Below, one piece after another: positions 29,633 through 45,809 of a DNA stretch of 56,970 nucleotides (position 1 is the stretch's first letter; each line of letters opens with the position of its first letter). Source of the stretch: Candidatus Nanoarchaeia archaeon (GTDB lineage Archaea > Nanobdellota > Nanobdellia > SCGC-AAA011-G17 > GW2011-AR18). A program made the translations under genes and the position numbers. Under the pieces are notes generated by a model. It was not told the DNA's origin. It saw only the letters and a list, made by a program, of their open reading frames with translations, and did no database searches. The stretch spans positions 1-56,970 of the forward strand of contig DASRUL010000005.1 of assembly GCA_035655455.1 (NCBI GenBank), written 5' to 3'.

Positions 29633-32140
29633 TTACACGCATCGCCCAGAATTACAAACTTTTAAGTTCGGGCATTGTGAATTAGACGTGCAAGCCGAGC
29701 ATAGCCATCCCCCTGGAGTTAGAGCGCAGTATCCAGACCGGCATTGCGAAGATCTCAAACATACACCGCCATTCCTGATGCTGCTGGCTCCGCAAACTCT
29801 TCTGGTCTGGTATTGGATGCAGGCTCCCGAGGAACAATCAGAATCTACTGTGCACAATGAGCCATCAGGCAAATTGGTTTGCGCTTGGCTGGAGCAGACA
29901 TTGTTCAGACAATTAAACGATTGGCACTGGATGCTTAAGCTGCAGGATGCGCCAGCCTGAAGATTGGATGGCAGGCAGGTCAGTCTGCTTGATCCGGCAG
30001 GATATCTGCATAAATTGGAGCTGCATTCTGAATCAGTTGAACATGATGCGCCATAGCCTAAACTTCCTGTCTCAGCCAAGCAGAATTTACCTTGTCCTGC
30101 AGGATTATTGATGCAATTTCCGGATAAGCATTGGTTATGGTTTTCACAGGTTTCACCGACGGAAAATCCGGCTATACAGAATTTTGCGTTTATTGGTCCT
30201 CGGCATAAATTAGGAGCGGGGCACTCTTCGTTGTACCAGCAGGAATCTCCGATGTTTTTTAAAGGTATACATTGTTTTTGAGTAAATTGACCGATTCGTC
30301 TACATGATCCGGAAAGGCATTGCGCATCTACATAACAGTTCTGATAATCTTCGAAGTTAGAGTTGAGGCATATTTTTTCTCCAAGAGGATCACTTGCGCA
30401 AAGATTTGAGGTACACTGGCGACTAGTTGAACAGAATCTATCTTTAGTGAGCCCAGAAGGGAGACATTGTTTAATTCTTATTCCTTGCGGATAATCGCAC
30501 ACTCCGGAAATGCATTCAGCGTCATTGGAGCAGGTATAACCGCCGCGTCCATGCAAATTTCCAGTGCATATTCCGCGTAGATCTACTTGGCCGGTAGTCT
30601 CAATCATTCGATAACATATATGAGCTTCATTTATTTCTTCGTAATTTCTTTGTGAGAATATTATGTTTCCATCATTACCAAAACCAGAAGCGAGATGCCC
30701 AGCACCACCACCCATGACTGACATCTCAGTTGGTTTAACTAAAAAAAAAGCGTAAGAACATCCATTAAATACATTAGGCCACCAAGGTTTAGAACTCGGT
30801 AGACAATTAGGGTATAGTGGAAAAGGATATCCTGGGTTCGTGGTATATTCATCAGCAAGATTGCCAAACGAGTGTCCTACTTCGTGAAGAAATGTAATTA
30901 TAATGTTGTTCCAAACAGTACTGTCATCATCGCTTAACCAAACTCGTGAATTTCCGCCCATCACGAAAGAGAACCATCGGTCAAAATTAGCAGAAGATTT
31001 GCATTTATCCCTAAGCACGTAAATAATATTAGTATTGGATAACCCGCAGGGCTCAATTGGATTATATCGATCGCACGTCTCTTTAAGATCATTGCGAGAG
31101 GAGGGTAAAGGTAAATCCTGATCCAGATACCAGAAATTGAACAAATGATTATTGTACTTAAAAGGATCCATTCCAAACAAGCCAGATGTTGATCTTTTTC
31201 GGAGGTCTTCTCGGGTATATCGTTCTGTTACTCCTTTCGCATTATAATCAATCATCTCTAACAAATATTTTGTAAACTCCGGAAGTCCTCGTTGATCCCG
31301 ACCGTAACCTAGCCCCACAAAAACAAGGTTAACTCGGTTTTCGCCCAAAGCGTTATGCCCAGGAAAAATTTCTTTGTAACCAGTACACTCCTGCTGGAAG
31401 GTATTGCCTTCATCGCTGTTAATCCCCACTAACGTTCGTTCAGACGAACCATCTACTGTTCTTCCAGTAATTAAAGAGGGCTGGCTTCCTCCCACGGATA
31501 CGGGAGTTATTGAAGAACTCATCAATTCAAAATATTCCCGGTTTCCAGAGCTGGAAACAGCATATTCTTGGTCAGAAACAACCGCTCCTTTATTAGAGAT
31601 TATCTGCAATCTTGCCGGGCTGTTGGCTAAAGGCCTTTCCACGGTAAATCTAACTTCCACTTCCGTTTTAGAACTTTCTTTAATATTTCCTAAATTAATG
31701 GTTCCATCGTCATTAAACTGTTCGGAGATCTCTAAAGTGGTCAGGCCAAAAAATTGCGTATAATCTTGGCTGTTAACATTCAAAACTGCCCGGTAAATTT
31801 CTTCCTGATTTAATCCTCCGGCTTCCTGAGCCTGAGTTCTATATTCTTCAATTTTCCTGGTTGCTTCTGAAGACTGAGTGTACATTCGCGCCTGTTTCAA
31901 TTTCCAATTGCCGGTGTCCAAAACCAAGGCATAGACATAATGCCGTATCCCTTCAGAAGTCATCGGGCTAATTTCTCCCCGGATGGAGCTTGCTGTTGAT
32001 TTGCTTGCAGAAAATTTGTTGAAATCAGTTGAGAAAGCCTGCCCGACAAAATTCTCATTTCCAATAATGATCACTCCGGAAATTACTGCCAGCAACAGAA
32101 CAAGTATTACATAATGAACTTGCTTAAAACCTCTTTTCAT
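29633..32140 (-). CDS. secreted or anchored M64-like zinc metallopeptidase with a C-terminal array of ~10 four-Cys modules
   Basis: 835 aa. N-terminal TM/signal anchor (VHYVILVLLLAVISGVIIIG). FLHEVGHSFGNLADEY (30845-30886) matches my recollection of the M64 IgA-peptidase-like HExxHxxGxxxDEY signature. The last 301 aa are Cys-rich repeats. Confidence 0.65.
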   Translation of the reverse strand: MKRGFKQVHYVILVLLLAVISGVIIIGNENFVGQAFSTDFNKFSASKSTASSIRGEISPMTSEGIRHYVYALVLDTGNWKLKQARMYTQSSEATRKIEEYRTQAQEAGGLNQEEIYRAVLNVNSQDYTQFFGLTTLEISEQFNDDGTINLGNIKESSKTEVEVRFTVERPLANSPARLQIISNKGAVVSDQEYAVSSSGNREYFELMSSSITPVSVGGSQPSLITGRTVDGSSERTLVGINSDEGNTFQQECTGYKEIFPGHNALGENRVNLVFVGLGYGRDQRGLPEFTKYLLEMIDYNAKGVTERYTREDLRKRSTSGLFGMDPFKYNNHLFNFWYLDQDLPLPSSRNDLKETCDRYNPIEPCGLSNTNIIYVLRDKCKSSANFDRWFSFVMGGNSRVWLSDDDSTVWNNIIITFLHEVGHSFGNLADEYTTNPGYPFPLYPNCLPSSKPWWPNVFNGCSYAFFLVKPTEMSVMGGGAGHLASGFGNDGNIIFSQRNYEEINEAHICYRMIETTGQVDLRGICTGNLHGRGGYTCSNDAECISGVCDYPQGIRIKQCLPSGLTKDRFCSTSRQCTSNLCASDPLGEKICLNSNFEDYQNCYVDAQCLSGSCRRIGQFTQKQCIPLKNIGDSCWYNEECPAPNLCRGPINAKFCIAGFSVGETCENHNQCLSGNCINNPAGQGKFCLAETGSLGYGASCSTDSECSSNLCRYPAGSSRLTCLPSNLQAGASCSLSIQCQSFNCLNNVCSSQAQTNLPDGSLCTVDSDCSSGACIQYQTRRVCGASSIRNGGVCLRSSQCRSGYCALTPGGWLCSACTSNSQCPNLKVCNSGRCV
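29636..30538 (-). other. protein-level tandem array of ~10 four-Cys modules (C-x5-C-x3/4-C-x6-12-C)
   Basis: Examples: TCSNDAECISGVCDYPQGIRIKQC, FCSTSRQCTSNLCASDPLGEKIC, NCYVDAQCLSGSCRRIGQFTQKQC, TCENHNQCLSGNCINNPAGQGKFC, SCSTDSECSSNLCRYPAGSSRLTC, LCTVDSDCSSGACIQYQTRRVC. Confidence 0.7.
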
Positions 32141-35340: not shown

Positions 35341-36620
35341 GACTCTTTCTCAACATAGGACACCTTTGCCTCAAGCACACCAACCAAGAGATCAGCAACC
35401 TTTTCGTGCCCTTCTCTCGTAAAGTGGCCATCTTCCTTGAAATAAAAACGCAGAGGGTCTTTTTCCCTTCCAAACTCCTCCACAAGATCAATAATCAAGA
35501 TATTCCTTTTCTTTCCAAACTCCAACAACCTGTGCCTCGCTTTAACCTTCCCATACGCTTCCTTGTCCAAGGGAAAAAACTTTCTCGAAGGAATACTCAA
35601 GATGATCACTCTCGCGCCGTTCTCTTCCGACAAAGCAACAATCTCCTCCAACAACCCCTCAGTCTTCGTCCATTCTCTTCCAGTCCTCTCAGAAGAGCCA
35701 GCGTATACCTCGTAAAAATCTTTCTTCTCAAACAAATCATCAAAGCCTTTCTTCTCCTTCGCAAGACTCCTAAAAACAGCGTCAGCTTTTGCACTCAAGA
35801 AACTCATTACATACAGCTTCATCTTCTCAGAACTTTTATAATCCTTCACAAAAAAGCCTTCAACCACAGAAAAATTACTCACATCAATGTTGTCAGTTAA
35901 ATCATTCCCCACAAAAAAAGCAACAATAACAACCTCAGGATTCAGCCTCAAACCATCCTCCTTCAAATAAAGAAGCTCCTGATCAGTACCATATCCGCCA
36001 ACACCAGCATTGACCACTTCAACGTCCTCTTTTTCACTTATTTTTCTCTCCAACACCTCGGAAAACGTTTCATTATCCTCTACACCAACCCCAAACGCGA
36101 AGGAGTCACCAAGCACAAGAACCTTTTTTTCAATAGAACTCTCACTTTCGCCCCCACGCAAACCCTCACTATTCGTGGAAACAGCAACATCATACTCAGC
36201 AGTCCTCATCCTTCCGGTAAAATTCGCAGCCATCCTATGACCAAGAACAGGATCATTCTCAAACATGTACCGAGGGATATAATCCCTCCCGATCTGCGGA
36301 GACAAGGGAAACGCCACACGCAATACTCCTTCAAACACTAGCAAGAACACAACCACTGACAAGAATAATACAACAACCTGTCTTTTGTTTCTTTTCAAAA
36401 AATCCAAGACCCTCCAACGACCTGTGGCCTCGAACACCCACAGGACTAGCAGCGCAAGAGCAACAACCAGCAACACTCCCTCAAAAATCCTAATCTTTAC
36501 TATGCTTAACTCAGAAAACTCTCTTCCAAAATACAATGACAGCGTGCTCTTATTAAAAACCACGCCAAGCACGAGCAACAACGACCCGATTGTTAAGAGC
36601 ACTCTTTCACTCTTCATCAT
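35337..36620 (-). CDS. membrane-anchored SGNH/GDSL hydrolase
   Basis: N-terminal TM segments, then VLVLGDSFAFG...GVGGYGTDQE...VGNDLTD...EDGHFT. ATG at 36620 (the track start is TTG). Confidence 0.7.
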   Translation of the reverse strand: MMKSERVLLTIGSLLLVLGVVFNKSTLSLYFGREFSELSIVKIRIFEGVLLVVALALLVLWVFEATGRWRVLDFLKRNKRQVVVLFLSVVVFLLVFEGVLRVAFPLSPQIGRDYIPRYMFENDPVLGHRMAANFTGRMRTAEYDVAVSTNSEGLRGGESESSIEKKVLVLGDSFAFGVGVEDNETFSEVLERKISEKEDVEVVNAGVGGYGTDQELLYLKEDGLRLNPEVVIVAFFVGNDLTDNIDVSNFSVVEGFFVKDYKSSEKMKLYVMSFLSAKADAVFRSLAKEKKGFDDLFEKKDFYEVYAGSSERTGREWTKTEGLLEEIVALSEENGARVIILSIPSRKFFPLDKEAYGKVKARHRLLEFGKKRNILIIDLVEEFGREKDPLRFYFKEDGHFTREGHEKVADLLVGVLEAKVSYVEKES

Positions 36621-38208
36621 TCCACTCAATTCTGTAAATTGTCACCTTCCAAGACTCATCTTCCCCATACACTTTTCTAAAAAATCCAGGGACATTCCTC
36701 TCCTGCAACAACGGCTTTAACGCAGGCCTCAACTCAATATATTTAGGATCAATCACAGCATAATCAACCTTTAACCTTCTCATCCCATCTAGCGTTTCCT
36801 CGAACGTTTCAGCATACGGATACAACGACGTCTTTATTTTCCCAGAAACAAACCCTTTTCCCTCGAACCTCGCATCAGGCAAATACCTCATAATATGACT
36901 TTGACCTTCGAGCACCATTATGTATCCCTCAGCATTGTCAGCCAGCCACAACGCCCAACCAGCCTCCTTATTTAACGGATCATTCTCCAACGAATTCAAC
37001 GAGACAGTACTATCACGCAAGCCAAACCCAATCACAACAAGGACAAAAACCGTCCAGATCAGATACTTATACCTCTGATTTTTCGCTAACACCCCCATTC
37101 CGGCAACAGCGAGCATCAGCACCAAGGGCACTAACGGATAAAAATACCGAGGATAAGTAAATGTGCCATAGACTGGAAGATGTGACAACACCCAAAACCC
37201 AGGCACCACCAAGAACCCAGCCAGGATCGCTTTTTCCTTTTTAAAAAAGTACAGCAACCCGACCAAGAACGGCAAGATCAACAACGGACCAACAATCACA
37301 ACAACCAAGGAATAAGCCATCTTCACACTTCCAGAAAAGGCAAATTTATTCAGGATTGTTCCGAAACTATTTTCTTTTACATACTCTATTAACGAAGGAG
37401 GCTCAACATTCGGGCTCCATGCTTCCTGACCAGAACTCAACAAGAACCCACTCTCACCTCCAAAATCAAACGGAGAACCATACACAACAGCCCGCAACCC
37501 GAGATACGGCAGCAAGACCAACCCGAAAACAACCAACATTATTCCCACGCGCCTCCAAGAAAAATCGTGAATTTCCTTTCTCAGCAACAACACAGCAAGA
37601 AGAACACCACCAAGAACGAACAACCCATTCACTCTCACCAAAAAACACAAACCAGCGAAGATTGTTGCCATGTACGCGAACTTCATACCCTCTTTTATTC
37701 TCAATGAGCAATACACCACAAACAAGAAGACCAACATGAACAGCGACTCACTCATCCCAGAAACAGCAGTGATCACCATCACATAGCTCATCCCGAACAG
37801 CACCAACACCGCCAACGTTTCTCCCTTTCCTAGTATCCTTCTCGCAATCAACCACAACGGGACAAATACAAAACCTCCAACAACAGCAGAAGCAACCCTC
37901 AACACATACTCCTGAAACGCGAACGACCTTTCAAGAAAAGGAAGGAAAAACAACGAGGCAACCAACGGCCAACCCATCGCACCAGCTTGTATTGGAATAA
38001 AATTCCCGGCAAGAATCTCTCTCACCTTTAACAAATACACAAACGCGTCCTGCCTCAAGATCGCGTCAGGAATCAGCGCTATCCTTAAAATCAAACCAGC
38101 CAAGAATAACAACGGAACAACAATCTTTTCGTTCTCCACGAGAACCCTTCCAAACCTCACGCAAGAGGCTTCAATCCTCTCCAAAACCCCCTCAACAAGC
38201 TCAGTCAT
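36607..38208 (-). CDS. GT-C-like polytopic membrane glycosyltransferase
   Basis: About 12 TM helices plus a soluble C-terminal domain. The ATG at 38208 overlaps the carbamoyltransferase stop by 8 nt. Confidence 0.55.
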   Translation of the reverse strand: MTELVEGVLERIEASCVRFGRVLVENEKIVVPLLFLAGLILRIALIPDAILRQDAFVYLLKVREILAGNFIPIQAGAMGWPLVASLFFLPFLERSFAFQEYVLRVASAVVGGFVFVPLWLIARRILGKGETLAVLVLFGMSYVMVITAVSGMSESLFMLVFLFVVYCSLRIKEGMKFAYMATIFAGLCFLVRVNGLFVLGGVLLAVLLLRKEIHDFSWRRVGIMLVVFGLVLLPYLGLRAVVYGSPFDFGGESGFLLSSGQEAWSPNVEPPSLIEYVKENSFGTILNKFAFSGSVKMAYSLVVVIVGPLLILPFLVGLLYFFKKEKAILAGFLVVPGFWVLSHLPVYGTFTYPRYFYPLVPLVLMLAVAGMGVLAKNQRYKYLIWTVFVLVVIGFGLRDSTVSLNSLENDPLNKEAGWALWLADNAEGYIMVLEGQSHIMRYLPDARFEGKGFVSGKIKTSLYPYAETFEETLDGMRRLKVDYAVIDPKYIELRPALKPLLQERNVPGFFRKVYGEDESWKVTIYRIEWNDEE

Positions 38209-40960
38209 CAGCAAACGCCTCGCTATCCCACATATCCTGAGCATTATCAGCGCGCCTAATCAGGAAACGATCCATCACCAAACAATCAATCCCCGTACCC
38301 ATCATACATCTATACGCCTCTTCAGGCTTACACACAATCGGCTCACCACGAATATTGAACGAGGTATTTATCAGCACAGGAACGCCGCTTAACTTTCCAA
38401 ACTCCTTAATCACCTCATAATATCGAGGATTCTGCTCCTTTCTTATCGTCTGCAACCTTCCAGTACCGTCAACATGCGTCACCGCAGGCAACAACTTTTG
38501 TTTCTCTTTCCTAATAGGATACACCAATAACATAAAATCAGCAGCCAACGGAATAGGATCGTCACACTCAAAATATTTCGGAGCGTCCTCAACGCATACC
38601 ACAGGAGCGAACGGCCTAAAACTGTTTCCACTAAAAACAATCTTTTCATCTCTTTTTACACAGAGCAGATTATACTTAGGAACCTTAACACAATATACTT
38701 TTCCATTATAATCTATTAAACCACTTTGATTTTTCCTGACATAAGATATCTTACTTCCTTTATTTAGTCTTACATAATAAGTAATATTATGTTTTGGATT
38801 CTTAGGAACTTCTGTTGATGTCGTTATACTATAGTCCAGTTTTAAACCTAACTCTTGGACTTCATCCGCTAATCTTTTACTTGTAGTCGTGTACTTATAC
38901 TGCTTTTTCCTAGGTGTTCCATCACCGCGCATCAACGCATCGAACAAGATCTTTAACTGTCTTTCGCTTAACTCTAAAAATTCTCTCGGTATGAACTTGC
39001 TCTTTGCTTTACCAAACTGTTTTAGATATTCAAAAAGCTGTTTGTTTCCCTTTATAAAACTTCCAGAATTATATCTCCATTGGTATATCTTGTTTAGACA
39101 CCCCTTCATTCTTCTATAATATTTTGAACTTACATTCTGAGAAATGTAAATATTGTGCTTTCCTTGATCATAACAACAACATCCTTCAGACAGATAATAT
39201 CCAAAAAATTCCAACCATAAATCCATAGGTATCTTATCTTTCTCAATAATATGACCATACTTTTTTCTTACAATTTTTGGTATTAAAAAATATTTTTTTT
39301 CTTTTCCATTCCATTTCTCAATTGCTTTGATCTGAATATTTTCTTTACACACTAGTCTTTTAGCTTCTTCAAATCCAAATCTATTCACATAAATACTGTC
39401 TCTATGATTAGTTATCTTTTTTGCCCACATATTATGTTCAGGCGTCACAACTAGATTTATTCTTTTGTTCTTGAAATATACCATCTTGCCTGTGTAATTG
39501 TACTCCATTCTTTTCTCTATTCTTTGATACACCAACTCTTTCGTTTTTGGATTCAATGTTGCTACTTTATCGTCTTTAGTCAGTTCTTTGAATGATTTCC
39601 ACCCCTCCTTTGTTAAAATTTGAGTTTGATCATCATAACACTCCCTATGCTTCACCTTGAGATTAAGAATTTCCTGCATCTTCGGATTACAAGGATTAGA
39701 AAGGATGCTTCTTGCGCCTAACGCCCTCGGACCAAACTCCATCCTTCCCTGAAACCAGCCAACAACATTGTTCTCGTAAATCAACTTCCCAACAGTCTCG
39801 ACTAATTCTTTTCCAGATCTAAATTCATTATATTTAATTCTGTTTTTATCCAAGTACTCTTTGATCTCTTTTTGATCATATCCAGGACCAAGATACGAAT
39901 GCTCCATCACGACATTCCTCTTGTTTTTAAAAAGACTAAAATACACAAAAGCAGCAGCGCCAACACTAGTGCCGCCGTCGCCAGCAGCAGGCTGAATAAA
40001 CAACGACTTAAACGGAGTTTTTTTCAAGATCTTCCCATTCGCCAAACTATTCAACGCGACACCCCCAGCCATACACAGATTCTTAGATTTGTACTTTTTA
40101 TGCAATGCGTTCAAGATTTTGAATAGTATCTCCTCTGTTAATTTCTGGACCGAAGATGCTATATCCTGATAATACTCCGTCATTGCCTCACTTTTTTTTC
40201 TCGACGGACCAAACTCTTGTATGAACTTTTTCGAAGGCATCGCCATCTTATAATGATACACGAAGTACTCCATATTCAACATGAAACTCCCGTCTTCCTT
40301 AACTTCTATTAACTTTCTTACTTTGTCAACATATTTTGGCTTTCCATACGCGCTCAATCCCATAGCTTTATACTCTCCGGAATTTGCCGTGAACCCCAAA
40401 AATACAGTAAATGTACTATACAACAACCCCAACGAATGAGGAAAACGAATCTCCTTCTCCAACACTAATTTATTATCCTTCGCATAGCCCGCAGTAGCAG
40501 ACGCCCACTCTCCTACCCCATCAACTGTCAACAAGACCGCGTCCTTAAACGGACTCATCAAATAAGAACTCGCGGCATGCGCAAGATGATGCTCAACAAA
40601 ATACACTTCCCCATCAAATCCCACCTTTTTCTTAATAATTCCACGAATCCTCAACTTTTCATTAATCCAAGATGGCATTGTCTTGTTGAAGGCAAACAAA
40701 CCGCGAGGAAAAGAATCCACAAATTGACTCATCACTCTCTCAAACTTTACTAGTGGTTTCTCATAAAAAGCGACAGCATCAAGCTCCTTTCCAGAAACAC
40801 CAGCCTCCTTTAAACAATACTTAATCGCGTTTATTGGAAAAGAGGCATCATGCTTTTTCCTTGTGAAGCGCTCTTCCTCCGCAGCAGCAATCAGCTTCCC
40901 ATCTTTGAGTATACACGCAGACGAGTCATGAAAGAATGCTGAAATACCTAATATAATCAT
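38201..40960 (-). CDS. NodU/CmcH/SxtI-family carbamoyltransferase interrupted by an intein
   Basis: N-terminus MIILGISAFFHDSSACILKDGKLIAAAEEERFTRKKHD...HHLAHAASSY...; C-terminal part ...FRPFAPVV...THVDGTGRLQT...LINTSFNIRGEPIV. 919 aa versus the ~580 I expect for this family. Confidence 0.85.
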   Translation of the reverse strand: MIILGISAFFHDSSACILKDGKLIAAAEEERFTRKKHDASFPINAIKYCLKEAGVSGKELDAVAFYEKPLVKFERVMSQFVDSFPRGLFAFNKTMPSWINEKLRIRGIIKKKVGFDGEVYFVEHHLAHAASSYLMSPFKDAVLLTVDGVGEWASATAGYAKDNKLVLEKEIRFPHSLGLLYSTFTVFLGFTANSGEYKAMGLSAYGKPKYVDKVRKLIEVKEDGSFMLNMEYFVYHYKMAMPSKKFIQEFGPSRKKSEAMTEYYQDIASSVQKLTEEILFKILNALHKKYKSKNLCMAGGVALNSLANGKILKKTPFKSLFIQPAAGDGGTSVGAAAFVYFSLFKNKRNVVMEHSYLGPGYDQKEIKEYLDKNRIKYNEFRSGKELVETVGKLIYENNVVGWFQGRMEFGPRALGARSILSNPCNPKMQEILNLKVKHRECYDDQTQILTKEGWKSFKELTKDDKVATLNPKTKELVYQRIEKRMEYNYTGKMVYFKNKRINLVVTPEHNMWAKKITNHRDSIYVNRFGFEEAKRLVCKENIQIKAIEKWNGKEKKYFLIPKIVRKKYGHIIEKDKIPMDLWLEFFGYYLSEGCCCYDQGKHNIYISQNVSSKYYRRMKGCLNKIYQWRYNSGSFIKGNKQLFEYLKQFGKAKSKFIPREFLELSERQLKILFDALMRGDGTPRKKQYKYTTTSKRLADEVQELGLKLDYSITTSTEVPKNPKHNITYYVRLNKGSKISYVRKNQSGLIDYNGKVYCVKVPKYNLLCVKRDEKIVFSGNSFRPFAPVVCVEDAPKYFECDDPIPLAADFMLLVYPIRKEKQKLLPAVTHVDGTGRLQTIRKEQNPRYYEVIKEFGKLSGVPVLINTSFNIRGEPIVCKPEEAYRCMMGTGIDCLVMDRFLIRRADNAQDMWDSEAFADD
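38624..39640 (-). other. intein (339 aa) with a LAGLIDADG-type homing-endonuclease domain
   Basis: Residues 441-779. Starts at Cys (TGT, 39638-39640; CYDDQTQILT). Block B is VVTPEHNMW. Dodecapeptide-like motifs LWLEFFGYYLSEGC and LKILFDALMRGDGT. Ends VFSGN (AAC, 38624-38626) followed by Ser+1. The exteins rejoin as KHRE|SFRPFAP. Confidence 0.8.
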
Positions 40961-40961
40961 C

Positions 40962-41219
40962 TTAAAATGGTTTCAAATACTCCTCCTTGTTTTTTTCACC
41001 GCCAATTTTTACTTCTTCCCAATAAGTTTCTTTTTCCTTTTCAGAATTCTTCATGTTCAAAAACCTCTTTCTTCCAATTTTCGCGCATACAGCCACAAAC
41101 CCAATACCAACAACAAAAATAACAGTCAACAAGAGCGTATTTATGATCACCGCGATCGTCTCGCCAAACGTGTGCATCCCCTGCTTCCAACCACTAAAAA
41201 ATAACTTTATTCTTTCCAT
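40962..41219 (-). CDS. SxtJ-like membrane protein, C-terminal half
   Basis: 85 aa. ...GWKQGMHTFGETIAVIINTLLLTVIFVVGIGFVAVCAKIGRKRFLNMK....ETYWEEV resembles the second half of SxtJ-family proteins as I recall them. Confidence 0.45.
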   Translation of the reverse strand: MERIKLFFSGWKQGMHTFGETIAVIINTLLLTVIFVVGIGFVAVCAKIGRKRFLNMKNSEKEKETYWEEVKIGGEKNKEEYLKPF

Positions 41220-41415
41220 ACCTCCCCCTCACCTTCCTTCCAACAACAAACATCACCACCAATATTCCAGCAGCAACCACCACAAACCAGTATGTCACCC
41301 AATCTCTCAACTTTATCAAGAAGGCCGCTGACAAAAAGATAAGCGAACCGCAAAAGATTCCAGCATACTCACCTGCCATATAGGAAAGCCTTCTTCTCTT
41401 AAGATGATCATCCAT
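41194..41415 (-). CDS. SxtJ-like membrane protein, N-terminal half (2 TM)
   Basis: ATG at 41415 (MDDHLKRRRLSYMAGEYAGIF...) with a TATA-like box at 41437-41446. Overlaps the next ORF by 26 nt in a different frame. Confidence 0.45.
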   Translation of the reverse strand: MDDHLKRRRLSYMAGEYAGIFCGSLIFLSAAFLIKLRDWVTYWFVVVAAGILVVMFVVGRKVRGRYGKNKVIF

Positions 41416-41457
41416 CAGCAAGCGCAACTGTGTAAGTTTTAAATAACTTTCTAAGAA

Positions 41458-42513
41458 TCATACAATCTTCGCTAGCTCAGCACCGACCATCTCCTTAAAA
41501 ATAGTATCCCTGTCCTTCGTAATTCTCCAAGAGGGGTATTCTTTTTTTAATTTCCTTAAATTACTGATATAACAAATATGATCACCCTCCCTGTTTTGCT
41601 CATTGTACGTATAATTCACTTCTTTTCCCGCCATTCTCTTTAAGATATCAAAACACTCTAAGATCGAAACACTATTCTCACGACCACCCCCAAGATTAAA
41701 GACAACACCATGCTGAGGATCATTAATAAACGCCTCGAACGCCCTCACCACATCATAACAATGGATCTGATCCCGCACCTGCTTTCCCTTATACCCAAAC
41801 ACTGTGTAAGGATCGCCTTTTACTGCAGTCTTAATCAAATACGATAAAAAGCCATGCAACTCAACACCACTATGCTGGGGTCCTGTGAGACAGCCACCAC
41901 GAAAACAAACAGTATTCATGTCAAAATAACGGCCATACTCCTGCACCATAATATCAGCAGCAACCTTTGATGCGCCAAAAACACTATGCTTCGAGCGATC
42001 AATACTCAATGACTCATCAACGCCCTCAAAATGCTCCTTGTTTGAGTAATCCCACCTTGTTTTCAACTCTTTCAACGGCAAATAGTTCGGAGAATCCCCA
42101 TACACCTTGTTCGTGCTCATAAACACAAAAGGAGCGGCAGGACAATGCTTTCTCGTGGCTTCCAACAAGTTCAACGTTCCTAACGCGTTCACCTCAAAAT
42201 CAGTAAGAGGATCATTCTTCGCCCAATCATGGGAAGGCTGCGCAGCACAATGAACAATCGCGCCAAACTCATGCTTCCTAAACAAATCAAACACCCCCTG
42301 CCTGTCTCTAATGTCAAGATCCATATGAGAAAAATTCTTCACTTTTTCTTTCAAATTTCTCAACATCCAAGACGTATCACCCTTCTCACCAAAGAAGAAC
42401 TTCCTCATATTATTATCAACGCCAACAAGATCATACCCCTGATTGCCAAAGTGCAAGACAGCCTCAGAACCAATAAGGCCACTGCTCCCAGTCACAAGAA
42501 TCTTCTTCTGCAT
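41458..42513 (-). CDS. extended SDR, CDP-paratose 2-epimerase-like NAD-dependent epimerase/dehydratase
   Basis: KILVTGSSGLIGS, STNKVYGD, FDMNTVCFRGGCLTGPQH, YKGKQVRDQIHCYDV and NLGGGRENSVSILE are collinear with RfbE-type epimerases as I recall them. The YxxxK motif reads FGASK. Confidence 0.7.
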   Translation of the reverse strand: MQKKILVTGSSGLIGSEAVLHFGNQGYDLVGVDNNMRKFFFGEKGDTSWMLRNLKEKVKNFSHMDLDIRDRQGVFDLFRKHEFGAIVHCAAQPSHDWAKNDPLTDFEVNALGTLNLLEATRKHCPAAPFVFMSTNKVYGDSPNYLPLKELKTRWDYSNKEHFEGVDESLSIDRSKHSVFGASKVAADIMVQEYGRYFDMNTVCFRGGCLTGPQHSGVELHGFLSYLIKTAVKGDPYTVFGYKGKQVRDQIHCYDVVRAFEAFINDPQHGVVFNLGGGRENSVSILECFDILKRMAGKEVNYTYNEQNREGDHICYISNLRKLKKEYPSWRITKDRDTIFKEMVGAELAKIV

Positions 42514-42584
42514 TCTTCACCCTCTTTCAGGAGAATACAAGACCCTTTTAAGGTTTTTGTGACACCTATCAGGGTTTATAATTT

Positions 42585-44021
42585 TTAAATAAACTTCAAC
42601 TTCCTCGAGGCAGCCAAGCACATCCTCAACATCGTCAACCCATTCTTCACGCGCTTATTCATCTTCGTCTCGCCATACGTCCTTTCCACATAGTGCACCG
42701 GCATGTCAACTATCTTTAAGTTAATCTTTGAGGCTGAAAACAATAACTCGTAATCACCCCACTGATCCTCAACACCCCACGTGAAGAAGACCTTCCTCAT
42801 CCTTTCATAATCCTCTTTGAAAAACACTTTTGTGCCGCAGAGCGTGTCTTTGACCGGTCTATCAAGAAGATAGGAAAAAATCATGCCGAACATTTTGTTA
42901 CCTATCATATTAAAACCGCGCATCGCCTGATCCTCCATTGGATACACCATCCTCGAGCCGTTGATGAACTCACCCTTGCCTTCCATCAACGCGTTGAAAA
43001 AGTAAGGAAGCTCTTCAGGTAACACCGTTAAATCAGCATCAAGAATCATCAAGACGTCACCTGACGCGTGCTTAAAACACTCCCACACATTCTTCGACTT
43101 ACAAATACCAGGGGAATCAACCAATCTAATCTTTCTGTTGGGATAAGTCTTGATACACCTCAACACTTCTTCCCTCGTATCATCAGTAGATTTGTCATCC
43201 CCGAAAATAATCTCCGTCCACTTTCCTAACTCAGGAATTCTCTTTATTGCGTTCTCAATGTTTCCTTTCTCATTCTTACAAGGTATTACAATACTCACTG
43301 AAAAATTCTTCCCATTTTTTCTCTCAGTGACCTTCCTTGCAATCACTACCTGCAAATACCCCAACCCCCTCATTCCCGGAATACGCGCGATATACTTATT
43401 TGTAAGACTACTTACCAATGGAACATACTTCGGCATTAACAACGCTCGATCCTTCCTCACCACATCTAAATCAGCAAGATACAACAAGTTACTCACATCC
43501 TCAACAGAAAGCCAATTCAGTGTTGGTTGTTTCATTTTCAACTTTAATCCTTCAGCGATTTTTACAATAGGATACCACAACGAGCTATGATTGATGATAA
43601 CAATCCTTGTTCTGTCGTCCGCAATCCTGCACACTTCCTTAAACAACTTCAATACGTCAACAATATCATCCAAAACATTCACCAACAAGATATAATCAAA
43701 TTTCTCCTTAATCTTTTCTAAACGCTCAAAATCCGCAACCTCAAAATTCAAATAAGGATATTTTTGCTTTGCAATCCTTACTAACTCTTCACCATACTCT
43801 AATCCTAGACCATAACTAGGATCAACACCCTGCAAAAAATCCCCAAGGTCGCTTTTTAACAATAACACTCGTTTCTTTGGCTCTACAATATTCTTCAAAA
43901 GCTTAAGGATATACCTATAGTAATACCGATTTTTCTTAATCCACTTCTTCCTAAACTCTGCATTCTTCCGATGAGCACTAACAATCTCACGTTTCTTCCA
44001 GCTCAAATCATCAATCGGCAT
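42585..44021 (-). CDS. fusion protein: SAM methyltransferase-like (N) plus GT2 glycosyltransferase (C)
   Basis: 478 aa. C-terminal half FSVSIVIPCKNEKGNIENAI...LMILDADLTV. N-terminal half has a Rossmann MTase-like layout (VLLLKSDLGDF...FDYILLVNVLDDI). Confidence 0.65.
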   Translation of the reverse strand: MPIDDLSWKKREIVSAHRKNAEFRKKWIKKNRYYYRYILKLLKNIVEPKKRVLLLKSDLGDFLQGVDPSYGLGLEYGEELVRIAKQKYPYLNFEVADFERLEKIKEKFDYILLVNVLDDIVDVLKLFKEVCRIADDRTRIVIINHSSLWYPIVKIAEGLKLKMKQPTLNWLSVEDVSNLLYLADLDVVRKDRALLMPKYVPLVSSLTNKYIARIPGMRGLGYLQVVIARKVTERKNGKNFSVSIVIPCKNEKGNIENAIKRIPELGKWTEIIFGDDKSTDDTREEVLRCIKTYPNRKIRLVDSPGICKSKNVWECFKHASGDVLMILDADLTVLPEELPYFFNALMEGKGEFINGSRMVYPMEDQAMRGFNMIGNKMFGMIFSYLLDRPVKDTLCGTKVFFKEDYERMRKVFFTWGVEDQWGDYELLFSASKINLKIVDMPVHYVERTYGETKMNKRVKNGLTMLRMCLAASRKLKFI

Positions 44022-44073: not shown

Positions 44074-45054
44074 ATGGTGGATATTGACTGCTTTTCGGTT
44101 CCTGGAATCTTTACTACACTCTTTGTTGCGCAACCTGTTCCTTTTGTTCCATCTGTTCCTGCCGAATACGTTTTCTGGGTCAAAAGACCATCACTCAGAG
44201 ATCCAGAACTAGAAGCGTTAATCGACTCCAAATGGCAAGCTCAAATAGAAACGAAAAAGAGGGAACTTGAAGCTAGAGGCGTACAAGATATAGCAATACG
44301 CCCTGATGAACGAGGACTTCCCGCACTCTATGAAGGAGAAAGAAAAATCATGTTTGACGGAACTATCTTTAGAGTATCTGATGTTTGCCCTGCCTTTGAT
44401 GGCACAGAAGCGGTCTGTATTGATGTTGAAGAAGGAAGATTCAGCACCATCAACCTCTCTCGCGATCCGGAATTTAGAGCACTCTCAGAAAAAAAATCCG
44501 GAGAAATAAGAAACGACGCTCTCGGCTCTTCAGAACTTCTTGTTACGAAAGATGGTTATATTGTTCTTACAAACAGAGGAGAACGACCAAACACCTACAA
44601 AAATCAGATGTATATGCCTGGAGGAAGACCTTCAACAGTAGCAGAATCTCCTTTAGAACACCAACTTGGAGAGAATGCTGAAGAACTTGGCTTAACATCA
44701 GAAGACTATCTTCGAGGCACAAAACACTGCTTTTACGGAATTGTTGCTGACGAACAACTTAACAGAAACAGAGAACTCATGTTCAAAGTTGAACTCAGCC
44801 TCACTGCAGATGAAGTGCAAAAAAGATACGATGCTTTACCAAAAAAACCAATAGACGTTGCTTCCTTAGAATTTTTATCTGCTGATGCAGACTCAATCTT
44901 GGGAAGACTTCTTAACGACGCACTTTGCCCAAGAAATAAGCCTGGCATTGTCATCCCACCAACCTTGGGTCTTTTAACACACTACGGATTCCACTCCTAC
45001 GGTCAAATGTGGCTTGAAGAGCTTGATATAAAAGTAAAAGAAGGAGATTTCTAA
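44074..45054 (+). CDS. divergent Nudix-fold protein with an N-terminal extension
   Basis: PGGRPSTVAESPLEHQLGENAEELGL approximates the Nudix box Gx5Ex7REUxEExGU but with GE in place of RE. Confidence 0.5.
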   Translation: MVDIDCFSVPGIFTTLFVAQPVPFVPSVPAEYVFWVKRPSLRDPELEALIDSKWQAQIETKKRELEARGVQDIAIRPDERGLPALYEGERKIMFDGTIFRVSDVCPAFDGTEAVCIDVEEGRFSTINLSRDPEFRALSEKKSGEIRNDALGSSELLVTKDGYIVLTNRGERPNTYKNQMYMPGGRPSTVAESPLEHQLGENAEELGLTSEDYLRGTKHCFYGIVADEQLNRNRELMFKVELSLTADEVQKRYDALPKKPIDVASLEFLSADADSILGRLLNDALCPRNKPGIVIPPTLGLLTHYGFHSYGQMWLEELDIKVKEGDF

Positions 45055-45055
45055 C

Positions 45056-45790
45056 TCACTTAGAATAAAACTTCTCCGCGCTTCTTAAAATATCTTGATT
45101 TGTCACATCAAACCACTCGCTTTCAAACACAAACGAATGCAAAAGCGTCCTTTTAAACATAAACTCGATTAAATCTCCAGAATGATCCTTATTCCCCTCT
45201 TTTACACATTGTAAAACAAGCGACAAGTCTTCTTTTTTTAGTATATAATAACATAAGCTTCCGATATTTGTTTTTGGAATCTTCGGCTTATCTTCAAACC
45301 CGACTATCTTATTCCCTTCTCCCACTTCAATTACACCAAATCTTGTTGCCAGTAAACTTTTATCTTCCACTGCTTTTCCCGCAACCACTGATGTATTCTT
45401 TCCTTTGAAAAAAGCTATACTCTCTTCAACTCCAAACCCAAATAATGTATCTCCACCTATAATGATTATATCCTCTTCTAAACCTATTCTTTCTATAACA
45501 AAAGCCATATCTCCCACCGCGCCAAGCCTCTCTTCAGGACCATTTGTCAGATTATTAATAATCCTTATCTTTTTAGTAAAACTTGACTGCTTATCCCATT
45601 CACAAAATGCTTCAAAAAAAAGATTATTTGTAATAAGAAAAATATCACTAATATCCTTACAAGAATCCAATTTTTCCATGATATGGTCGATAATCTTCTT
45701 CCCTCCAACTTCAATAAAAGCCTTAGAAATATTCTCTGTTAAAGGATAAAGCCTTGTTCCAAACCCAGCAATTAGAATTAGCACTTTCAT
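45056..45790 (-). CDS. sugar-1-phosphate nucleotidylyltransferase
   Basis: MKVLILIAGFGTRLYPLTENISKAFIEVGGKKIIDHI (G-x-G-T-R-L motif). ATG at 45790 preferred over the track start. Confidence 0.75.
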   Translation of the reverse strand: MKVLILIAGFGTRLYPLTENISKAFIEVGGKKIIDHIMEKLDSCKDISDIFLITNNLFFEAFCEWDKQSSFTKKIRIINNLTNGPEERLGAVGDMAFVIERIGLEEDIIIIGGDTLFGFGVEESIAFFKGKNTSVVAGKAVEDKSLLATRFGVIEVGEGNKIVGFEDKPKIPKTNIGSLCYYILKKEDLSLVLQCVKEGNKDHSGDLIEFMFKRTLLHSFVFESEWFDVTNQDILRSAEKFYSK

Positions 45791-45809
45791 CTCTCTGCTA
45801 AAGAGCAAA

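Follow-up and report, generated by a model that had tools for sequence, protein, structure and literature searches.

A 56,970-nt stretch of contig DASRUL010000005.1 from a Candidatus Nanoarchaeia archaeon (referred to below, at its full length, as the window) encodes on its minus strand a 919-residue protein with the domains of a carbamoyltransferase, interrupted by an insert of 1017 nt. We consider it highly probable that this insert is an intein of class 1, with a double-motif LAGLIDADG homing endonuclease inside it, and that it has invaded the O-carbamoyltransferase gene of a DPANN (Nanoarchaeia/Woesearchaeota-like) archaeon. In the pathway that we propose, the 919-residue precursor would first be translated, after which Cys1 of the intein, aided by the Thr and His of splicing block B, would carry out an N–S acyl shift, the N-extein would be transferred to Ser+1, and the C-terminal Asn would cyclise, yielding an active enzyme of 580 residues and a free endonuclease of 339 residues. 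The endonuclease would then cut intein-free alleles at the conserved site, and repair would then add a copy of the intein along with its Ser codon. As a catalytic motif is split by the insert, we expect the precursor itself to have no activity.

The insert and its host protein

In the precursor, Pfam recognizes Carbam_trans_N at residues 3–336 (5e-88) and Carbam_trans_C (4.5e-67), the latter broken by the insert into two stretches. When the insert is removed in silico, Carbam_trans_C becomes a single continuous match covering positions 2–170 of 170 (241.7 bits, 4e-72). The remaining 580 residues, which is the modal length among homologues, align end to end with the solved carbamoyltransferases GdmN (1.6e-98) and TobZ (2.4e-83), and the GdmN alignment runs without a gap across the splice junction. 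An earlier interpretation made from the DNA letters alone (the sequence-only reading) had given the same boundaries for the open reading frame (ORF), an excess of about 340 residues over the length expected for the family, and residues 1–440 and 780–919 as one continuous carbamoyltransferase; all of this was borne out, the strand, which it had left unstated, being minus. The putative catalytic and metal-site motifs KHR, NTSFN, FFHD and HHLAH are all found in the host protein, with the putative metal-site motifs reading FFHDSSA and EHHLAHAAS in the N-extein. Judged by its domains and alignments, the host is a predicted ATP-dependent carbamoyltransferase of the NodU/CmcH/TobZ type, composed of Kae1-like and YrdC-like domains, and its NodU equivalog score of 138.8, against a cutoff of 1000, implies that it is not a NodU orthologue. 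Where relatives of the host protein carry a name, they belong to DPANN archaea. The annotation of one protein in the same 90% cluster reads just 'carbamoyltransferase N-terminal domain-containing protein [Candidatus Nanoarchaeia archaeon]' and mentions no intein.

The identification of the insert as an intein, with a HINT splicing domain and a double-motif LAGLIDADG endonuclease, is supported by profile, fold and distribution. The insert sequence by itself gave only marginal matches to sequences in the Protein Data Bank (PDB; E ~0.3). A family profile (A1) built from 18 complete intein copies matched PI-PkoII (2.6e-15), the Tli and Pho VMA inteins (7.6e-11) and the NrdHF and KlbA mini-inteins; both LAGLIDADG motifs aligned with the first and second motifs of PI-PkoII and the VMA intein, and the mini-intein matches ran through the N-terminal splicing region. 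An AlphaFold (AF2) model of the insert, computed with the A1 alignment, reached a predicted local distance difference test (pLDDT) value of 89.7 and a predicted template modelling (pTM) score of 0.88. In a Foldseek search, this model was closest to TliVMA (1.2e-16), followed by PI-SceI, PI-PkoII and PI-PfuI, all as whole-intein matches with TM scores of 0.56–0.68, and its endonuclease part matched I-DmoI (TMt ~0.63), in agreement with the alpha-beta-beta-alpha-beta-beta-alpha pseudo-dimer fold of double-motif LAGLIDADG endonucleases. Pfam LAGLIDADG_3 was detected above its cutoff at residues 675–735 of the precursor (28.2 vs 22.5 bits). The two LAGLIDADG motifs end in ...YYLSEG and ...LMRGDG, each with the acid followed by Gly, and the TPEH of block B occupies intein residues 66–69. 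The strings quoted in the sequence-only reading, namely CYDDQTQILT, VVTPEHNMW, the two LAGLIDADG motifs, and ...KIVFSGN followed by SFRPFAP, are all present, and its proposal of a LAGLIDADG intein agrees with the profile, the fold and the distribution.

The insert also differs from its surroundings in base composition. Its GC content is 30.8%, against 40.9% and 45.6% in the exteins, and GC at third codon positions (GC3) is 28.0%, against 44.8% and 47.5%. It is the lowest-GC 1017-nt stretch of the window (mean 42.5%, standard deviation 2.85), with the sliding minimum at position 38617, and no stretch of this length clear of the insert reaches an equally low value. The higher AT content had already been noticed from the letters, and the two hand counts given for it, 26.7% GC at 38701–38760 and 45.0% at 38281–38340, are exact. 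The second-lowest GC region lies at 44715–45571 (34–36% in 1017-nt stretches), where it spans the end of an ORF at 44074–45054 (plus strand, 326 aa, no Pfam match) and an ORF at 45056–45808 (minus strand); it has no similarity to the intein. A search of the window for a second intein copy found none.

The continuous reading frame could equally be expected if the insert were a conserved accessory domain of a carbamoyltransferase subfamily or the product of a chimeric assembly, and nothing beyond the frame speaks for either. The insert is absent from 116 of the 120 closest homologues (61–76% identity), these 116 being ~580 aa long, and present in four, P0022 (the window protein itself), P0049, P0132 and P0140. 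Relatives of the insert occur in unrelated proteins with 34–42% identity over the full length. The identical 919-residue precursor recurs on several independent contigs from different samples and sources, and a groundwater metagenome scaffold of 72 kb matches the window. Insert-free homologues, unrelated hosts and independent contigs together rule out both alternatives, to which we assign a negligible probability.

Splicing residues and mechanistic class

The residues essential for class 1 splicing are all present in the window intein: Cys1, Thr-x-x-His, the C-terminal Asn and Ser+1. Of the 150 best family representatives, 147 matched a local rebuild of the profile, and the 233 full-length copies in which conservation was assessed were drawn from these 147. 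Cys stands at residue 1 in 231–232 of the copies, and Ser, Thr or Cys follows the intein at +1 in all 233. Gly-Asn closes 214 copies (Gly at G:6 in 219), F:4 is occupied by Cys in 215 copies, by Asp in 11 and by Ser in 6, and Arg330 is kept in 217. The exteins of the window protein retain all 160 columns in which conservation among intein-free homologues is ≥97%. Because the exteins are fully conserved despite a 339-residue insert inside a catalytic motif, we argue that the intein splices out.

Several observations weigh against the reading as a class 1 intein with a homing endonuclease. The penultimate His, common in inteins though not obligatory, is absent, with Gly in its place at G:6, and the window copy and its two nearest relatives have Asn at a block F position where 91 of the 233 relatives have His and 102 have Gly; cyclisation of the C-terminal Asn may be slow or reliant on other residues. 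The curated splicing models stay under their cutoffs (Pfam Intein_splicing 16.7 vs 35.8 bits; Hint_2 13.2 vs 28.4 bits; NCBIfam intein_Nterm, at residues 441–511, 22.3 vs 24.5 bits), which is the probable reason why public annotation of the intein is missing; of the domain models named in the sequence-only reading, LAGLIDADG was recovered above its cutoff and Hint below it. The low GC content may come in part from the Lys/Asn/Tyr-rich composition of the endonuclease, though GC3 is low too. Finally, a literature search found no splicing or cleavage assay for this intein or any close relative.

An insert that is unable to splice without the two His residues, leaving either an inactivated enzyme or one that works with a permanent 339-residue insertion, would be in line with the penultimate Gly and the block F Asn. 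Gly-Asn is, however, the norm of the family, so that the penultimate Gly is not a defect of the window copy; the departure from the usual His that the sequence-only reading pointed out is real, but not peculiar to this protein. That Gly-Asn is maintained so widely in the family together with a +1 nucleophile is sensible only if splicing occurs. Moreover, a permanent split of an invariant catalytic motif should kill the enzyme and free the exteins from constraint, whereas the conserved extein columns are kept without exception. We therefore regard failure to splice as very unlikely.

A penultimate Gly is also carried by the M. jannaschii RNA polymerase A' intein and the C. eugametos ClpP intein, and the window intein resembles these His-less inteins in having a non-His residue before its C-terminal Asn. 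It differs from other His-less inteins in that Gly-Asn is the consensus of a very large family and not an isolated exception. The Chlamydomonas ClpP intein with its penultimate Gly is said to have needed a Gly-to-His change to splice in E. coli, reportedly in work by Wang and Liu in 1997. In the present family, the conserved Arg330 is a candidate, by inference, for taking over the function of the penultimate His. Studies of inteins without this His, by Chen, Benner and Perler (2000) and by Wang and Liu (1997), are cited as references 74 and 75 in PMC4031507.

Class 3 inteins lack an N-terminal nucleophile and carry a WCT triplet composed of Trp B:12, Cys F:4 and Thr G:5 (PMC2807308). The Cys at F:4, shared by the window intein family (92% of copies), prompted us to consider this class. 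The window intein differs from class 3 by its Cys1, by Met at B:12 and Ser at G:5, which leave no WCT triplet, and by the retained Thr B:7; in addition, F:4 is Asp or Ser in 17 of the 233 copies, and among inteins generally only one other residue is more frequent at F:4 than Cys (PMC4031507). Class 3 was rejected on these grounds, and the window intein is filed, by its predicted active-site residues, as class 1. An unlikely but specific extension is that the signature Cys1–Cys F:4–Arg–Gly-Asn, present in >90% of the 233 copies, marks a mechanistically distinct sub-class in which Cys F:4 would serve as a redox toggle or a second acyl carrier and Arg would replace the penultimate His. A redox toggle has been shown for a class 3 intein (PMC6195587). 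In the redox-toggle variant, a disulfide between Cys F:4 and Cys1 would let splicing proceed only under reducing conditions, a dependence demonstrated in other inteins, and, if true, glycan carbamoylation in an anaerobic DPANN archaeon would depend post-translationally on redox state.

Insertion site, mobility and selection

The intein is located between Glu440 and Ser441 of the mature protein, within the YrdC-like domain that forms the carbamoyl adenylate. Each of the 120 closest homologues has the motif KVKHRE-x-FRPFAP, whose sole variable position, x, is the exact place of the intein. Residue x is Lys in 62 of the 120 sequences and Ser in five, of which four are the intein-bearing alleles; the near confinement of Ser to alleles with an intein fits the requirement for a +1 nucleophile. 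Across the empty site, the intein-free P0024 reads ...AAACACAGAGAA↓TCCTACAGGCCATTT..., where the arrow marks the point of insertion.

A KxR...SxN catalytic motif of the YrdC fold has been described for TobZ, HypF and TsaC (PMC9654439). In the spliced domain, Pfam gives a sub-threshold match to Sua5_yciO_yrdC (E 0.0029) that aligns protein positions 62–182 with profile positions 35–151, from VKHR to past NTSFN. When a profile built on the YrdC-like domain was run against the PDB, no structure of Sua5, TsaC or HypF was among its matches, and three TobZ variant chains had lower scores. The TobZ variants K443A and S530A may mark the KxR and SxN motifs, with which these lower scores agree; a literature search for the numbering of TobZ active-site residues gave no result. 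On the weak Pfam match, KHR is probably the KxR half of the KxR...SxN catalytic tetrad, placing the intein one residue past a probable catalytic motif. Inteins usually sit in conserved catalytic motifs (PMC7765530), and the site in the carbamoyltransferase follows this rule.

The +1 codons differ among the intein-bearing alleles, being AGT in the window (38621–38623), P0132 and P0140, TCT in P0049, and TGT, for Cys, in P0001; intein-free alleles have AAA, TTG or TCC at this position. The differences in codon family may reflect separate invasions or co-conversion.

The same intein allele was found in other carbamoyltransferases, namely P0132, P0140, P0049, P0210/P0209 (the cluster of Woesearchaeota MBS3153257.1), P0016, P0006 and the phage-like P0001, all with the identical insertion point ...(K/F)RE↓C...GN↓(S/C)(F/W/E)(R/M)P(F/Y)AP and in carriers whose exteins are down to 41% identical to the window host. 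The insertion site, which the sequence-only reading had thought unusual, thus recurs in several carbamoyltransferase lineages. The carbamoyltransferase inteins are 56–75% identical to the window copy, compared with ≤42% for inteins in other hosts, and, being mutually closest and inserted at the same site, they fit what a single homing lineage should show. The intein is more similar than the exteins in the comparisons with P0132 (74.9% vs 64.7% identity), with P0140, and with the distant Woesearchaeota enzyme P0210 (64.0% vs 41.5–45.9%). Alleles without the intein, which the sequence-only reading had proposed to look for in related genomes, were found: P0023, the nearest orthologue of the window protein (76% identity), has the same synteny and is intein-free, as is P0075, the nearest extein relative of P0132 (93%). 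The GC content of the intein is steady at 30–32% across hosts of 34–43% GC.

The P0132/P0140 pair allows selection to be followed. At synonymous sites the two differ by 0.46 in the intein and by 0.80, a saturated value, in the exteins. The ratio of nonsynonymous to synonymous rates (omega, dN/dS) is 0.089 over the intein and 0.117 when only the endonuclease domain is taken, so the intein is under purifying selection in this pair. The synonymous difference is lowered to 0.55 in the first 50 C-extein codons and is not lowered in the last 50 N-extein codons (0.93), a pattern that, resting on 50 codons, is suggestive at best of one-sided co-conversion.

Two further points on the opposing side concern the window copy itself. 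Its synonymous sites are almost saturated relative to the nearest intein relatives (pS 0.72–0.80), which makes dN/dS unusable for these comparisons, and recent mobility is shown for the lineage, through the P0132/P0140 pair, and not for this copy. The intein might thus still splice while its endonuclease is inactive, the element being a vertically inherited passenger that is not currently mobile. The near-saturation, which gives no sign of recent transfer into this genome, speaks for such a passenger, and neither a second copy nor an intein-free allele is visible in the window. Yet Glu152 and Asp240 are intact and these acids are conserved throughout the family, the endonuclease domain is under purifying selection in P0132/P0140, and intein identity exceeds extein identity in the three comparisons given above. 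In addition, inteins without an endonuclease usually decay to mini-inteins, whereas the window intein is full length. We rate a non-mobile passenger as a real but rather low possibility; the LAGLIDADG endonuclease of the proposed homing intein is probably active.

The most divergent copy of the same intein allele is P0001, at locus L009 (1522–4560, 5242–7560), with a GC content of 23–27%. Its host is split into separate genes, with Carbam_trans_N (387 aa) followed by a 110-aa ORF and then Carbam_trans_C with the intein, and a Phage_sheath gene adjoins the carbamoyltransferase. L009 is a possible viral or contractile-system vector.

Genomic context, intein family and known systems

The features of the precursor gene are collected in Table 1.

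Table 1. Positions of the interrupted carbamoyltransferase gene and its parts in the window (arrow, splice junction)
Feature	Coordinates	Strand	Evidence
Precursor ORF, 919 aa, carbamoyltransferase interrupted by the putative intein	38201..40960	-	ORF list; Pfam; identical protein P0022 on independent public contigs
N-extein, aa 1–440: Kae1-like domain and first part of YrdC-like domain, ends KVKHRE	39641..40960	-	
KVKHRE, invariant motif directly before the intein; KHR, probable KxR half of KxR...SxN	39641..39658	-	
Intein, 339 aa (aa 441–779): HINT splicing domain with inserted LAGLIDADG endonuclease	38624..39640	-	Profile, Foldseek, AF2, distribution
Splicing block A CYDDQTQILTKEGW, putative Cys1 nucleophile	39599..39640	-	Cys1 in 231/233 family copies
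Splicing block B INLVVTPEHNMWAK, Thr B:7 and His B:10	39419..39460	-	Thr 226/233, His 233/233
LAGLIDADG homing endonuclease domain, intein residues ~126–300	38741..39265	-	Pfam LAGLIDADG_3; I-DmoI match
LAGLIDADG motif 1 LWLEFFGYYLSEGC, putative catalytic acid Glu152 (intein numbering)	39179..39220	-	Glu/Asp in 224/233
LAGLIDADG motif 2 LKILFDALMRGDGT, putative catalytic acid Asp240 (intein numbering)	38915..38956	-	Asp/Glu in 218/233
Splicing block F GKVYCVKVPKYNLLCVKR: Cys F:4, Asn where most relatives have His/Gly, family-conserved Arg	38651..38704	-	
Splicing block G and +1 residue, KIVFSGN↓S: C-terminal Asn, penultimate Gly, putative Ser+1 nucleophile	38621..38644	-	
C-extein, aa 780–919: remaining YrdC-like domain, begins SFRPFAP, contains NTSFN (SxN)	38204..38623	-	

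The carbamoyltransferase gene has as neighbours a GT2–methyltransferase fusion, an NAD-dependent sugar epimerase, two small membrane ORFs, two PMT_2 (GT-C) proteins, an SGNH hydrolase and a methyltransferase. The sequence-only reading had called the enzyme glycan-tailoring; its membership in the NodU/CmcH/TobZ type stands on Pfam, GdmN and TobZ, while the glycan part derives from gene context alone, by which a glycan or lipid-linked sugar is a plausible substrate. The two small hydrophobic-looking ORFs lie directly upstream, at 40962–41219 and 41194–41427 (both minus strand; 85 and 77 aa, no Pfam match). ORFs of similar size (75–87 aa) precede the carbamoyltransferase at the related loci L003, L004, L006, L007 and L008, and a DUF5989 mini-gene is found near it at three (L004, L005 and L006). 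Small ORFs, DUF5989 mini-gene and carbamoyltransferase look like a conserved carbamoyltransferase module. The carbamoyltransferase ORF starts 2 nt past the end of the upstream small ORF and shares an overlap of 44 nt (38201–38244) with the downstream PMT_2 gene (36607–38244), a tight packing that looks like an operon. Plus-strand GC skew is strongly negative across 36000–43000 (−0.2 to −0.6), which fits G-rich (C-poor) coding strands of mostly minus-strand genes. Elsewhere in the window, an 835-aa ORF at 29633–32140 (minus strand) has a sub-threshold Peptidase_M64 match (E 2.3e-4, 20.9 vs 26 bits) and is otherwise uncharacterised. Scans of the window for tRNAs and for Rfam families found none.

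The intein belongs to a family that comprises 27,163 cluster representatives (50% identity) at E≤1e-3 and 6,834 at E≤1e-30, with at least 550 loci on viral contigs. Full-length relatives of the window insert (34–56% identity) are found in carbamoyltransferases, at the same site, and in PAPS reductase, thymidylate-synthase-like proteins, dCMP deaminase, UXS-type epimerases, LamG proteins, a TPP enzyme and MCM. The copy in the TPP enzyme, P0019, ends ...ISANMN↓S with a penultimate Met, a rare departure from the Gly-Asn rule. In a Pfam scan of 45 representatives, the hosts included GT1 glycosyltransferases (7), RNA polymerase Rpb2 (4) and carbamoyltransferase (2), as well as MCM, ThyX, portal proteins, PolB, Clp, Lon, DNA methylases and a radical SAM enzyme. 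At E≤1e-5, the LAGLIDADG domain was recognised in 38 of these 45 proteins, Intein_splicing in 7 and Hint_2 in 3. A scan of GTDB genome contigs with the single intein sequence returned only four distant relatives (32–34%) from other archaea and is uninformative for carbamoyltransferase inteins.

Family loci L014–L093 lie on IMG/VR viral contigs, some longer than 100 kb, and nearly all of their copies end in Gly-Asn. Several viral insertion sites recur, as judged only from the sequence on either side: NSWG↓...↓S.WG (papain-like peptidase), GTD..D↓...↓S.VGTNP (terminase), LLDPPY↓...↓S (DNA methylase) and ...KRA↓...↓CYDESKR (UXS). From these motifs we judge the viral hosts to be putative papain-like peptidases, terminases, DPPY methylases and UXS proteins. 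Many of the top family matches (P0142–P0288) are proteins of 1000–3700 aa that match the intein profile in 2–10 stretches, and 82 of these multi-match proteins hold two or three full-length intein copies.

The sequence-only reading had taken a sugar-tailoring carbamoyltransferase to be an unusual host. In its favour, a literature search for an intein in a carbamoyltransferase found no paper describing one, searches on inteins combined with DPANN, and with metagenomes and glycosyltransferase, returned nothing on this element, and public annotation records none. Against it stand the many non-replicative hosts of the family, including GT1, UXS-type epimerases, PAPS reductase, LamG proteins and peptidases. 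The carbamoyltransferase is a new but unsurprising host for this intein family.

The ATP-dependent O-carbamoyltransferase adds a new host protein and insertion site to the intein catalogue, and the same intein allele appears to move between carbamoyltransferases that are only ~41–46% identical, one of them in a phage-like locus. What makes the element of interest is chiefly how large the family is, how poorly it is annotated, and the non-canonical signature conserved in its active site. The splicing domain of the family is mostly missed by curated intein models, and annotation is likely to give genes that carry such inteins a wrong size or to split them. The family also offers inteins of the Gly-Asn, Ser+1 kind and new LAGLIDADG specificities that have yet to be exploited.

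Compared with known systems, the host protein shares its two-domain architecture of Kae1-like and YrdC-like parts with the class III ATP-dependent carbamoyltransferases TobZ, GdmN, NovN, NodU and CmcH, while differing from NodU in not being its orthologue by equivalog score. The intein shares with PI-PkoII (2cw7), the Tli and Pho VMA inteins (7qss, 7qsu, 7qst), PI-PfuI (1dq3) and PI-SceI (1vde) the arrangement of a HINT domain split by a double-motif LAGLIDADG endonuclease, as well as Cys1, TxxH and the C-terminal Asn, at merely 10–16% sequence identity. The hosts of those inteins are a polymerase, an ATPase or a ribonucleotide reductase, whereas here the host is a carbamoyltransferase. The window intein is further distinguished from the solved archaeal and yeast inteins by its penultimate Gly and its Cys at F:4, and it belongs to a subfamily with no solved structure.

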